Origin: a virus
Virus record (IMG/VR): IMGVR_UViG_3300021426_000170
Location: 1 to 35,518 of that record
Length of the DNA: 35,518 bases
Reading direction: 5' to 3' (one strand)
The translations under genes were made by a program, and so were the position numbers. Every line of letters starts with the position of its first letter. The first letter of the stretch is position 1. This document shows, piece after piece, positions 29,078-31,646 of this stretch. The notes beneath the pieces were generated by a model. It was not told the origin of the DNA and ran no database searches. It saw only the letters and a list, made by a program, of their open reading frames with translations.

Positions 29078-29830
29078 ATGAGTGTATATGCGTTTTCAGA
29101 TATACATGCTCAATATAATCTTTGGACACAAATTAAAGAATATATTAAGCCAGAAGATACTGTATATTGTCTGGGAGATTGTGTAGATCGCGGCAATGTC
29201 GGCCTTGAAATTTTAAATGAAGTTATGGAAACTCCTAATATTATTCTTCTTCGAGGAAACCATGAAGATTTCATTGACAGTATTGGTTCTGAAGTTATGC
29301 ACTATAAGCCCAATGAAGAGGTTTATTGGGCAGTTCCTAATATAGAACTTTGGTATGCAAATGGCGCAGAAAATACCATTAAAGCCTTTAATGAACTGTC
29401 AAAAGGAAAGAAAAAATGGCTTATTAATAAAATTAGAAAACTTCCTACTCATGCAGAATACATCAATTCTAATGGTAATATAATTTATCTTTGTCATGCG
29501 GGAAGGCAACCAAATACAAAAGAAATTAAAGATATGCAGACAGGTGACATTCCAATGAATAATTATATTTGGGATCGGACTCATATTGGTAAATTACATT
29601 GGGATGGAAAGGATAATGAATATTGTGTTCATGGGCATACTCCAATTGAATATATGTATTGTTATCTTAATCAAAAGGCCGATTTCCCAACAACTAGATT
29701 CAAAATTTATAAATATTGTGATGGACATAAAATTAATATTGATTTAGGCTCTTTTCGTACTCATCGTACATGTTTGTTAAATCTTGATACCTTTGAGCCA
29801 ATTTATTTTGAAGATAAGGAGAATAATTAA
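29078..29830 (+). CDS. PPP-family metallophosphatase (lambda-phosphatase / ApaH-like Ser/Thr phosphatase or phosphoesterase).
   Basis: Signature motifs are SDIHA, GDCVDRG and GNHED. The ATG at 29078 is 7 nt after AGGAGG. The track start at 29072 is too close to the RBS. The stop is TAA and there is no TAG. Confidence 0.8.
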   Translation: MSVYAFSDIHAQYNLWTQIKEYIKPEDTVYCLGDCVDRGNVGLEILNEVMETPNIILLRGNHEDFIDSIGSEVMHYKPNEEVYWAVPNIELWYANGAENTIKAFNELSKGKKKWLINKIRKLPTHAEYINSNGNIIYLCHAGRQPNTKEIKDMQTGDIPMNNYIWDRTHIGKLHWDGKDNEYCVHGHTPIEYMYCYLNQKADFPTTRFKIYKYCDGHKINIDLGSFRTHRTCLLNLDTFEPIYFEDKENN

Positions 29831-29831
29831 A

Positions 29832-30119
29832 ATGGATAAATATTTGATTAATAAAAATGAATTATTAGCATTTTTACGATATGAAATTCTTTATAAATGG
29901 AAATGTGTTGCAGAAACTAATGATAAGGCAAAAAATTTTTCATATTATTTACAGAATGAAACCCCATATCATCCAAATTCAGAATTTATTCAATCTTTGT
30001 GTAAAACAAAAGAAGAACATGATGATCCTGTTGGAACAATGGTCTATGAAGATATTCTGCCTGCAGATGTAGCAAGATACCAGGCCGCCACTTTATATAA
30101 ACCTTATAAGGAGAGTTAA
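29832..30119 (+). CDS. Hypothetical protein of 95 aa.
   Basis: ATG 29832 preceded by AAGGAGAA. The stop is TAA. Confidence 0.55.
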   Translation: MDKYLINKNELLAFLRYEILYKWKCVAETNDKAKNFSYYLQNETPYHPNSEFIQSLCKTKEEHDDPVGTMVYEDILPADVARYQAATLYKPYKES

Positions 30120-30129
30120 AAATCTCTCT

Positions 30130-30158
30130 TTGTTTTTTATTATATTTTTTGTTATAAT
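30130..30158 (+). promoter_or_regulatory. Second promoter: TTGTTT-17 nt-TATAAT with an extended -10 TG.
   Basis: TTGTTT 30130-35, TG 30150-51, TATAAT 30153-58. Confidence 0.4.
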
Positions 30159-30184
30159 GTATATAAAGATAAGGAGGAATAGTT

Positions 30185-30610
30185 ATGACAAATACAGGAA
30201 TGTTTGAATTATGTTATCTTTATTATGATGAAAAAACAATGGAACATGCAAAAAGAGTTGCTAATGAAGCACAAAATCTTTGTAAACTTTTTAAACTTCC
30301 TTATACAAATTATGATAAATTTGTTTATCAACTCGGTTTAGCACATGATTTATATGAAGATACAAATATTAAACAAGGTGCTTGGTTTGATTACGATTTT
30401 GAAGAAAATCTTCAACTTTTAACAAAAGAAGAAGATGTAGATTATAATGATTATATTGCGAAAATTCGTGGAATGGCAACGAGTAATCCCAAATACCTGC
30501 CTGCATATATTGTAAAACTCGCAGATATGCATGATCATTTTGCACAAGTTGATACATTAACTGATAAACTTAAAAATAAATATGCGGCGGCGATGCCCTA
30601 TTTAATTTAA
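30185..30610 (+). CDS. HD-domain phosphohydrolase of 141 aa, with a (p)ppGpp-hydrolase / SpoT-like HD signature (H...GLAHDLYEDT...D).
   Basis: RBS AAGGAGGA precedes ATG 30185. His at MEHAKRVA and the HD pair in LAHDLYEDT. The stop is TAA. Confidence 0.6.
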   Translation: MTNTGMFELCYLYYDEKTMEHAKRVANEAQNLCKLFKLPYTNYDKFVYQLGLAHDLYEDTNIKQGAWFDYDFEENLQLLTKEEDVDYNDYIAKIRGMATSNPKYLPAYIVKLADMHDHFAQVDTLTDKLKNKYAAAMPYLI

Positions 30611-30625
30611 GGAGGAGATAAAAAT

Positions 30626-30796
30626 ATGAATAAAAATACTGGAAGTAGTATTGGATTACTTGATGTTATTTTAGTAGTAAATATTGTACTTAAACTTATT
30701 GGTGTAATTAATTGGAGTTGGTGGATAGTATTATGGCCTCTTTGGGTTAGTATTGCAATTATGATTATTTTTATTATTATTGTAAAAGTTTTTTAG
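30626..30796 (+). CDS. Small membrane protein of 56 aa with two hydrophobic helices.
   Basis: RBS AGGAGGA precedes ATG 30626. It terminates at TAG 30794-30796, with an in-frame TAA two codons later (30803-30805). Confidence 0.5.
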   Translation: MNKNTGSSIGLLDVILVVNIVLKLIGVINWSWWIVLWPLWVSIAIMIIFIIIVKVF

Positions 30797-30818
30797 GGAT
30801 TATAAGGAGGAAAAATCA

Positions 30819-31646
30819 ATGCCAGTGCATGATGATCTTGGAAAAAGAATGAAAGAGTTTTATGAGCAAGTTCCCAAAACTAGACTTGTTCGTCGTATGC
30901 CTGTTATGATTAGAATTGATGGTAAGGCTTTTCATACTTTTACTCGTGGTTTTCAAAAACCTTTTGATGATATTTTAATTAAATCTATGCAAGAAACTAT
31001 GAAATATCTGTGTGAAAATATCCAAGGATGTGTATTTGGCTATACTCAATCGGATGAAATTACACTTGTGCTTGTTGATTATAAAAAATTAACTTCTTCT
31101 GCTTGGTTTGATTATGAAGTACAGAAAATGTGTAGCATTTCTGCATCAATGGCAACTATGGCTTTTAATAAATTTTTAACAAATAATTATCAGCAGTGGA
31201 TTAAAGAAACTATTCCAGAAGATAAATTAATGGAATCTTCGAACTTACTTAATTATAAAGAGGAGTTGATACTTAGTACAGTTTATTTTAAAGCAATAGA
31301 TAAAGGCGCAATGTTTGATGCACGCTGCTTTAATGTACCAAAAGAAGAAGTAACTAATTTTGTATATTGGCGGCAGTTGGATGCTACCCGAAATTCAATT
31401 CAGATGGTAGGTCAGGCTAATTTTTCTCATAAACAGCTTCAGGGTAAATCTTGTAATATGATTCAAGATATGCTTTTTACTGAAAAAGGAATAAATTGGA
31501 ATGATCTTCCTGTTGTAAAGAAACGCGGCTCTGCATGTATTAAAGATGCGGAAGGTCATTGGTTTGTTGATGAAAATATGCCAATTTTAAAGACGACTGA
31601 TGAAGTGGATTATCGCCACTATGTTGACAAATTAATTGATTTTTAA
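30819..31646 (+). CDS. Thg1-like protein (tRNA-His guanylyltransferase family, 3'-5' nucleotidyltransferase).
   Basis: RBS TAAGGAGGA precedes ATG 30819. Motifs VMIRIDGKAFHTF...FGYTQSDEITLVL...SASMATMAF match the Thg1/TLP catalytic core (RxDGxxFHxF, GxSDE). There is no TAG. Confidence 0.8.
   Translation: MPVHDDLGKRMKEFYEQVPKTRLVRRMPVMIRIDGKAFHTFTRGFQKPFDDILIKSMQETMKYLCENIQGCVFGYTQSDEITLVLVDYKKLTSSAWFDYEVQKMCSISASMATMAFNKFLTNNYQQWIKETIPEDKLMESSNLLNYKEELILSTVYFKAIDKGAMFDARCFNVPKEEVTNFVYWRQLDATRNSIQMVGQANFSHKQLQGKSCNMIQDMLFTEKGINWNDLPVVKKRGSACIKDAEGHWFVDENMPILKTTDEVDYRHYVDKLIDF

Follow-up and report, generated by a model that had tools for sequence, protein, structure and literature searches.

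Near its right-hand end, a 35,518-nt stretch of viral DNA (IMG/VR record IMGVR_UViG_3300021426_000170, positions 1 to 35,518; the window, hereafter) encodes a PPP-family metallophosphoesterase (PPP), a compact RelA/SpoT-type HD pyrophosphohydrolase (HD), and a bacterial-type Thg1-like protein (TLP), a predicted 3′-5′ RNA polymerase. With a probability of about 0.55, we read these genes as the variable upstream section of a phage island, confined to one strand and free of TAG codons, for RNA (probably tRNA) heal-and-seal repair and counter-defence. The predicted core of this island, consisting of an Rnl5-like ligase, a Pnk-like 5′-kinase, and metallophosphoesterases, would lie just past the window, with PPP, HD, and TLP serving as accessory cassettes of this lineage. 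Where the acceptor stem of a damaged tRNA has lost nucleotides at its 5′ end, TLP would rebuild them through templated 3′-5′ addition, working on 5′-phosphate ends possibly supplied by the kinase, and PPP would clear 2′,3′-cyclic or 3′-phosphates. HD would either degrade (p)ppApp/(p)ppGpp produced on tRNA attack or strip the 3′-pyrophosphate placed on tRNA CCA ends by toxic alarmone-synthetase (toxSAS) toxins. The biochemical activities, the substrates, and the link to host defence are predictions that draw on homology, active-site conservation, and gene linkage, each of which is described below. All three open reading frames (ORFs) lie on the + strand where the initial annotation had located them, and their matches (Metallophos, Aph1-like HD, and Thg1) agree with the domain types it had named; the RNA-repair context that it proposed is backed by comparative genomics, in the form of linkage to ligase, Pnk, and RlaP genes in relatives.

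A ligase-kinase core past the end of the window

Locus L082 matches the window at 100% identity, and the right edge of the window coincides with the end of the contig; the ENA contig ERZ12302851 NODE_1573, the terminal part of which is 100% identical to the window, stops at the same point. The identical TLP protein was found on longer contigs, and locus L081, which shares 14.7 kb with the window at 98.6% identity, extends 6.1 kb further. Past the Pyr_excise gene, L081 carries on the same (+) strand, in order, genes for a metallophosphoesterase, an Rnl5-like ligase, a Zn-ribbon protein, and a Pnk-like kinase, and then those for DUF551 and Metallophos_2 proteins. The repair genes from the metallophosphoesterase to Metallophos_2 occupy the interval 3.6-7.6 kb downstream of TLP, with the ligase 4.7 kb and the kinase 6.3 kb from the TLP stop. 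The first of them is the second metallophosphoesterase of the island, of which the window holds the N-terminal 93 codons (35239..35517, + strand) before the contig end cuts it; the sibling protein has 277 aa and matches Metallophos at 6.4e-16. The ligase (423 aa, with an N-terminal OB domain) matches RNA_ligase at 1.1e-20, OB at 1.9e-20, and, in the PDB, the Rnl5-type RNA ligase of Naegleria gruberi at 6.6e-25. The P-loop kinase (164 aa; AAA_33, 5e-24) most resembles the kinase domains of Clostridium thermocellum Pnkp (3.3e-9) and T4 Pnk (6.5e-7), and also PSTK, and the last gene matches Metallophos_2 at 1.4e-8. The core genes of L081 contain no internal in-frame TAG; the sole TAG in the Metallophos_2 gene falls five codons from its end and is possibly a true stop.

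The island is also present in IMGVR_UViG_3300021399_000007 (L001/L164; 133.9 kb), which looks like a circularly permuted complete genome; its TLP gene is at 129.8 kb and its ligase gene at 1.2 kb, so the island wraps round the ends of the record. Of the heal-and-seal set (kinase, 3′-end phosphoesterase, and ligase, all activities predicted), the window itself has phosphoesterases only, and the kinase and the ligase are separate genes in L081. The initial annotation had held that the pathway would dispense with the classical kinase and ligase; this is wrong, because sibling contigs that encode an identical TLP carry both an Rnl5-like ligase and a Pnk-like kinase downstream of it on the same strand. 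Methyltransferases, and with them a Hen1 partner, were absent from the annotated neighbours, among which no search aimed at Hen1 was made.

Gene linkage in related phages

Across related phages, ligase, kinase, and phosphoesterase form a conserved core, to which PPP, RlaP, major vault protein (MVP)-like, TLP, and HD genes are variable accessories. Neighbouring genes were labelled by tblastn, an insensitive procedure that missed a trifunctional gene in L024 until its ORF was read directly, so the linkage counts are lower bounds. Among 63 ligase loci, 56 also encode Pnk and 46 encode a metallophosphoesterase. Where the ligase locus measures at least 15 kb (35 loci), accessory genes comprise PPP (12 loci), RlaP (12), MVP (10), TLP (8), HD (5), and Macro (5), all on the ligase strand and mostly upstream of the ligase.

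Viewed from TLP, a ligase, Pnk, or RlaP gene occurs within 6 kb in 24 of 79 loci, corresponding to 15 of 49 lineages (clusters at 90% identity). The gene orders vary: TLP is immediately flanked by repair genes in an Rnl5 ligase-x-RlaP-PnkHD-TLP-PPP-DHH/RecJ-like-Macro-PARP arrangement (5 loci), in PPP-TLP-Pnk-metallophosphoesterase (2 loci), and in ligase..TLP-RlaP-x-PnkHD (2 loci), and in a further lineage (3 loci) an enzyme combining kinase, phosphatase, and ligase is encoded 2 kb upstream of TLP. In L024 (1881-4070) the latter is a Pnkp-like 730-aa fusion of kinase, metallophosphatase, and Rnl1 ligase. The TLPs that adjoin repair genes in other lineages are 53-65% identical to that of the window, and three distinct architectures place a PPP-family protein immediately next to TLP. 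In three lineages with HD proteins of 38-43% identity, TLP and HD stand at most one gene apart, in either order, and in L085 HD lies directly upstream of ligase-Pnk-metallophosphoesterase in a locus that has no TLP, PPP, or MVP; altogether, HD relatives are found near repair genes in 21 of 79 loci. TLPs act on 5′-phosphorylated ends, and a kinase next to TLP therefore makes biochemical sense.

The most serious competitor of the repair-island reading, possible though distinctly the less probable of the two, is that PPP, HD, and TLP are uncoupled, each acting independently in a variable early-gene region, and that their closeness to the ligase-kinase core reflects expression timing only. PPP might in that case be a NinI/lambda-type protein phosphatase for host takeover and TLP a tRNA housekeeping enzyme, which we regard as no more probable than the uncoupled explanation as a whole; the same tentative standing is given to the proposal that HD hydrolyses (p)ppApp/(p)ppGpp and so blunts the stringent response or alarmone-based toxins. 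Several observations weigh on this side, against a repair island, or both. The order PPP-orf95-HD-TM56-TLP (orf95 and TM56 being two small intervening ORFs) is confined, among the 79 TLP relatives, to close relatives of the window (L001, L005, L074, and L080-L083). No repair gene lies within 6 kb of TLP in 34 of the 49 lineages (69%), and 58 of the 79 HD loci have no TLP, ligase, Pnk, or RlaP within that distance; in the cultured phages Fnu1 and PK-3, the neighbours of TLP are unrelated to RNA repair. The commonest gene clusters around HD look like replication and nucleotide-metabolism genes in sequences that were read by eye, not scanned. The best family match of PPP is a NinI-like Ser/Thr protein phosphatase and its top homologues are all stand-alone, HD lacks part of the specificity signature of Aph1, and PPP, HD-TLP, and MVP seem to own separate promoter-like elements. 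Finally, the island includes MVP-like, Pyr_excise, and gp5.9-like genes that have no link to RNA repair; with such genes interleaved, proximity may mean a common early accessory region, not a common pathway. What argues against three uncoupled genes is recurrence: TLPs of only moderate identity to that of the window repeatedly adjoin Pnk, RlaP, PPP-like, and ligase genes in varied orders, the pairing with HD reappears with its order inverted, and the contact between TLP and a PPP-family protein recurs in three architectures.

The PPP metallophosphoesterase

The PPP gene (29078..29830, + strand) encodes a stand-alone binuclear metallophosphoesterase of 250 aa that falls, by its Metallophos and phrog_246 matches, its motifs, and Foldseek, in the clade of lambda phosphatase, NinI, and the Pnkp phosphatase. 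Its start is placed at the ATG at 29078, 7 nt past an AGGAGG Shine-Dalgarno sequence (29065-29070); the mechanical ORF start at 29072 sits too near that sequence. The protein matches Pfam Metallophos at 9.5e-14, and its best PHROG match is phrog_246, a NinI-like Ser/Thr phosphatase family (4e-32); it also matches phrog_8238 at 4.3e-10 in the middle of the profile (positions 174-315 of 737; the profile is labelled 'RNA ligase'). The DxH, GDxxDRG, GNHE, H140, and GH motifs are conserved among 28 homologues, in which D34, D37, R38, G60, N61, H62, H140, G186, and H187 are invariant and D8, H10, G39, and E63 nearly so. With a structure model of high confidence (pLDDT 94.3), the top Foldseek match is lambda phosphatase NinI (1g5b; E 4.5e-13, TM 0.60/0.67), with the C. 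thermocellum Pnkp phosphatase domain (4j6o; 6.3e-10) next. PPP shares with these two structural neighbours the complete DxH/GDxxDRG/GNHE/H/GH set and differs from them in standing alone and in carrying an extra helical insert (model residues ~61-120). Fused kinase or ligase domains were considered for the PPP homologues and rejected, the top 120 being stand-alone throughout.

Both lambda phosphatase and the phosphatase domain of Pnkp have 2′,3′-cyclic phosphodiesterase activity. PPP may act as a protein phosphatase or as an RNA 3′-end healing enzyme, two roles that sequence alone cannot separate. A role in RNA repair is plausible, and the repeated adjacency of PPP-family proteins to TLP tilts the choice toward it.

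The HD pyrophosphohydrolase

The HD gene (30185..30610, + strand) encodes a 141-aa protein whose family profile and fold assign it to the compact RelA/SpoT-type pyrophosphohydrolases, similar to small alarmone hydrolases (SAH) and closest to Aph1. As a single sequence it had no match in Pfam at E <= 0.1 and nothing useful in the PDB, and its identity was resolved solely by a family profile, built on proteins of ~140 aa from metagenomes and viral contigs, together with a structure model. Against the PDB, the profile ranks the (p)ppApp hydrolase Aph1 (7smg) best at 1.1e-9, followed by RelSeq and Mesh1; RelSeq (1vj7) was reached by the family profile alone (2.5e-4). The score against TIGR00691, a model of the long RelA/SpoT-type hydrolases, is 13.2 bits, far under its cut-off of 499, and there is no match to Pfam HD_4. 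The AlphaFold model (pLDDT 94.1) has eight helices, and Foldseek reproduces the profile ranking with 7smg at the top (TM 0.69); the sequence and fold matches that follow Aph1 are Rel, Mesh1, and SAH enzymes. The H/HD/ED/D motifs of RelA/SpoT-type hydrolases are present; H21, R24, H54, E58, K111, D114, D117, K132, and Y133 are invariant in the family, and D55 and D59 nearly invariant.

The fold and specificity residues that define the Aph1 family have been described (PMC10083569), Aph1 itself being a prophage-encoded enzyme of 8 helices (PMC10083569). HD has the metal site and the compact 8-helix fold without helices 0 and 9 that characterize this family, and it lacks the full specificity signature of Aph1 (D24, R96, D116, R119, K133, and Y134). 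In the family-profile alignment to 7smg, the invariant K132 and Y133 of HD line up with K133 and Y134, K93 (in a variable column) with R96, and Q121 with R119; D116 lies in an Aph1-specific insertion that is deleted in HD, and D24 falls outside the aligned region. Since three of the six specificity residues are missing, (p)ppApp specificity cannot be assumed for HD, which may for the same reason act at the tRNA 3′ end. HD thus resembles Aph1 of a Bacteroides caccae prophage, Mesh1, PaSAH, and ATfaRel in its compact 8-helix fold of ~140-150 residues, its H...HD...ED...D metal and catalytic motifs, and its C-terminal K-Y pair; it differs from Aph1 in the three specificity residues, in a sequence identity of only ~23%, and in the lack of an adjoining MuF toxin.

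By its sequence family HD is an alarmone-hydrolase-type enzyme. The initial annotation had cast it as a healer of 2′,3′-cyclic-phosphate or 3′-phosphate ends and had offered a small alarmone hydrolase as the alternative; the first proposal is not supported, in that the only enzymes with which HD groups are Aph1, Rel, Mesh1, and SAH, all of them (p)ppApp/(p)ppGpp hydrolases, a grouping that the initial annotation had itself listed as refuting, and it is the alternative that the Aph1-like profile and fold matches favour. No 2′,3′-cyclic phosphodiesterase or HD-Pnk-type enzyme appeared among its PDB sequence and fold matches. Equivalence to the HD domain fused to Pnk in some relatives was likewise rejected, the alignment of the HD profile with Pnk-HD of L063 by hhalign giving a probability of 0.8% (E 0.07). 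As judged from these relationships, HD more likely hydrolyses alarmones or removes tRNA 3′-pyrophosphate than heals RNA ends, and degradation of (p)ppApp/(p)ppGpp would be its simplest role. In L024, a fusion of an N-terminal Cys-rich segment with an Aph1-like HD domain is encoded 580 nt downstream of TLP (7452-8114).

SAH enzymes are able to take off the 3′-pyrophosphate that toxSAS toxins put on tRNA (bioRxiv 10.1101/2021.04.30.441581). In a bolder version of the repair-island reading, HD-TM56-TLP would be a two-ended repair device for the tRNA acceptor stem, HD removing the 3′-pyrophosphate left by toxins of the CapRel/FaRel2 type and TLP refilling the 5′ strand. This version draws solely on the adjacency of TLP and HD in three lineages, the position of HD beside the ligase in L085, and the partial absence of the Aph1 signature; we nonetheless consider it unlikely. 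Were it true, a RelA/SpoT-type hydrolase would be a dedicated phage RNA-repair enzyme, and bacterial-type TLPs would have their first natural context. The broader idea that phage small RelA/SpoT-type hydrolases repair pyrophosphorylated tRNA, beyond degrading alarmones, can be put to the test.

The Thg1-like protein

TLP (30819..31646, + strand; 275 aa) is identified by Pfam Thg1, phrog_4717, and PDB 4kgk. It scores 104.1 bits against Thg1 (PF04446; cut-off 29.2, E 6.7e-30) and 24.3 bits, slightly under the cut-off of 26.3, against Thg1C, and it matches phrog_4717 at 2.4e-87. In the PDB, the TLP of Bacillus thuringiensis (4kgk) is matched at 5.2e-61, whereas eukaryotic Thg1 chains reach 1.5e-8 to 2.7e-8. 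S78-D79-E80 is invariant and D34 nearly invariant in 22 phage homologues; D34 (in RIDG) and D79-E80 (in SDEI) align with RLDG and SDEY of chains 7cv1 and 3wbz, and we take D34, D79, and E80 to be the counterparts of the human metal-binding carboxylates D29, D76, and E77 (human numbering). The eukaryotic HINNLYN motif is absent, ATRNSIQM standing where 7cv1 has CHINNLYN, and the protein belongs with bacterial TLPs, not with eukaryotic Thg1. The choice between Thg1 and TLP that the initial annotation had raised is thereby settled for the latter, and the loss of catalytic carboxylates that would have spoken against its proposal is not seen. Its alignment with B. thuringiensis TLP is near full-length, with the catalytic D, S-D-E, and K-P-F-D kept and HINNLYN missing from both; the phage protein differs in its location in a phage genome near repair genes and in a variable insert of ~38 residues (~126-163) between aligned blocks. 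The segment at residues ~119-160 varies in length and sequence among the phage homologues and is longer than its bacterial counterpart.

Bacterial TLPs prefer, in vitro, to repair 5′-truncated tRNAs (PMC3061083, PMC6471195), and their natural substrate is unknown (PMC6471195). From its linkage and its fit to this in vitro preference, membership of TLP in an RNA-repair toolkit is reasonably supported. Uncultured phages thus provide an explicit genomic context for TLP, amid polynucleotide kinase, RlaP, phosphoesterases, and RNA ligases, and in vivo tRNA repair by TLPs becomes a testable hypothesis with named partner enzymes.

An alternative that we regard as improbable is that TLP matures phage or host tRNAs and does not repair damage, whether by adding G-1 to tRNA-His or by correcting the 5′ ends of phage tRNAs, including an amber suppressor. 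The phage is TAG-recoded, G-1 addition opposite C73 is possible in vitro for bacterial and archaeal TLPs (PMC6471195), public annotation describes the protein as tRNA-His guanylyltransferase, and the tRNA arrays of L060 and L065 stop ~450 nt upstream of TLP. Against this, ARAGORN reported zero tRNAs in the window or in sibling loci, where none lies within 10 kb of TLP, and only 5 of the 45 TLP loci scanned contain any tRNA; furthermore, TLP lacks the HINNLYN of true Thg1, and the enzymes that recur beside it are those of repair, not of tRNA processing. As the main role of TLP, G-1 addition to phage tRNA-His was rejected, the one such tRNA examined (L065) having G-1 encoded in its DNA. The special link between TLP and suppressor tRNAs that the initial annotation had drawn is also not supported, as 160 GenBank phage records, spread over many host groups, have an annotated TLP, which is thus not limited to this lineage. 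The L065 array comprises nine tRNAs (164-5545), with its end 456 nt upstream of TLP. In the tRNA-His of this array, two U-U mismatches occupy 4:69 and 5:68 of the acceptor stem, and the predicted 94-nt 'tRNA-Pro(agg)' looks aberrant.

Genetic code and transcription signals

The window is a phage fragment with a GC content of ~30%; together with the strong use of Shine-Dalgarno sequences, this low value suggests hosts among the Firmicutes. A megablast search of the region against GenBank phages found no near-identical DNA, and the phage is known solely from metagenomes. TAG is a sense codon in the minus-strand structural genes (13763-28356): the tape-measure ORF (18994-28356, - strand; 3120 codons) contains 85 in-frame TAGs and the next large minus-strand ORF (1646 codons) contains 23, as against zero in the plus-strand block from 29078 on. 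This contrast fits standard-code early genes and recoded late genes. The TAG recoding is real; the suppressor tRNA presupposed by the initial annotation was not found in the window by ARAGORN.

The divergent intergenic region upstream of PPP (28910-29077; 168 bp) contains a promoter-like site, recognized by its consensus only, TTGATC-17-TATAAT with TG (28989..29017, + strand), which holds TTGTTATAAT at 29008-29017. The same TG-extended -10 box, TTGTTATAAT, recurs upstream of HD (30149..30158, + strand), and these are the only two exact copies in the window. It is preceded by a terminator-like hairpin of 10 pairs followed by a T-run (30106..30133, + strand), which overlaps the end of orf95. A third promoter-like site, TTGATT-17-TATAAT with TG (31636..31664, + strand), overlaps the TLP stop and precedes the MVP-like gene, after which there is a strong terminator-like hairpin (34190-34217). 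A generic sigma-70 promoter scan was not above chance (42 sites versus 37.7 +/- 6.4), and statements on promoters rest solely on the repeated, conserved TG-TATAAT motif. Window positions 30075-30190 were aligned with L081, L005, L074, L085, L088, and L090: the hairpin upstream of HD is present in five of these seven loci (the window, L081, L005, L074, and L090). In L090 the upstream gene is a different one and the stem shows a G-C to A-T change that is compensatory. TT(G/A)TTATAAT is present in all seven loci, even where HD opens the block. The module of terminator hairpin and TG-extended -10 box seems to go with HD whatever the upstream gene.

Gaps of 15 nt (HD-TM56) and 22 nt (TM56-TLP) separate the genes that follow, each of which has a strong Shine-Dalgarno sequence. 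Because the hairpin with its T-run and the repeated, conserved -10 boxes divide the block, the signals suggest three putative transcription units, [PPP-orf95], [HD-TM56-TLP], and [MVP-like], in place of the single promoter postulated earlier. A self-contained non-canonical pathway of PPP, HD, and TLP alone, driven by one promoter and free of kinase and ligase, is highly improbable: the three genes do share one strand within 2.6 kb and 5′-end restoration by TLP would in principle need no ligase (PMC3061083), but the same phage lineage encodes a ligase and a kinase past the TLP stop, HD is not of the cyclic-phosphodiesterase type, a hairpin and a second promoter-like element separate PPP from HD, and the trio is not kept as a unit across relatives.

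Relation to known repair systems

Thg1 has been listed among the RNA-repair nucleotidyltransferases of jumbo phages as a sporadic 5′-end-restoring enzyme (Iyer et al. 2021, PMC7824862), and an 'HD-alarmone' phosphodiesterase has been described for the same phages (PMC7824862). As a general concept, phage RNA-repair islands with Thg1 and alarmone-targeting HD enzymes are therefore already published; the present island is a new example of a system predicted for large phages, and the advance is incremental. In common with T4 Pnkp and Rnl1/Rnl2, C. thermocellum Pnkp, Rnl5-type ligases, and the jumbo-phage repair set (PMC7824862), the island brings the same enzyme classes together on one strand, namely a P-loop polynucleotide-kinase-like protein, calcineurin-type phosphoesterases, and an ATP-dependent RNA ligase whose OB domain is N-terminal; with the jumbo-phage set it shares, in relatives, accessory nucleotidyltransferases (RlaP and Thg1-like) and Macro and HD proteins. 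It differs from the known systems in that its functions reside in separate small genes and are not fused (a fusion accompanies TLP in L024), in that an MVP-like gene and an Aph1-like HD gene are interleaved, and in being known here from genes alone. Unlike the jumbo-phage set, it belongs to a TAG-recoded genome of ~134 kb, which is under the jumbo range. Classification of the island as a defence system was rejected, PADLOC having returned no matches for nine proteins.

Other genes of the island

Two small ORFs between the three genes had been missing from the initial annotation. The first, orf95 (29832..30119, + strand; 95 aa), to which no function is assigned, had no match in Pfam, PHROG, or PADLOC; it travels with TLP in L002, L005, and L074. 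Its similarity to a gp5.9-like protein of 66 aa (34273-34473, + strand) is weak (pairwise E 0.002); the gp5.9-like protein is itself recognized by a weak or faint match to T7 gp5.9 in precomputed Pfam results for the identical locus L082. T7 gp5.9 is a RecBCD inhibitor, and orf95 and the 66-aa protein may be paralogous small anti-host proteins. The second, TM56 (30626..30796, + strand), is a predicted membrane protein of 56 aa (phrog_1374, 4.4e-13) that also stands between HD and TLP in L005 and L074. It is the sole gene of the block with a TAG stop (30794-30796), read-through of which would add 3 residues before a TAA.

Between TLP and the ligase core lies the MVP-like gene (31698..34175, + strand), encoding an 825-aa protein homologous to MVP (MVP_shoulder, 8.4e-23) that matches the PDB major vault protein at 6.7e-10 across residues 321-777. 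Among the 35 ligase loci that span at least 15 kb, 10 have an MVP-like gene no more than 10 kb away from the Rnl5-like ligase. Phage MVP homologues are known from a preprint that is silent on tRNA, ligases, and gene neighbourhoods (bioRxiv 10.1101/2023.11.10.566534). The gp5.9-like gene is followed by one for a 114-aa protein with no assigned function (34477-34821, + strand; from L082) and by the Pyr_excise gene (34821-35219, + strand; precomputed Pfam, L082), whose 132-aa product, a T4 endonuclease V-like pyrimidine-dimer glycosylase, represents DNA repair amid the RNA-repair genes of the island.

Genes encoding PARP, PARG, and Macro domains are present in the islands of some relatives (L063 and L150). 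In L063 (7700-11100), TLP-PPP is followed by DHH/RecJ-OB, Macro-domain, and PARP-catalytic-domain proteins, which points to an ADP-ribose or 2′-phosphate processing branch of the island.

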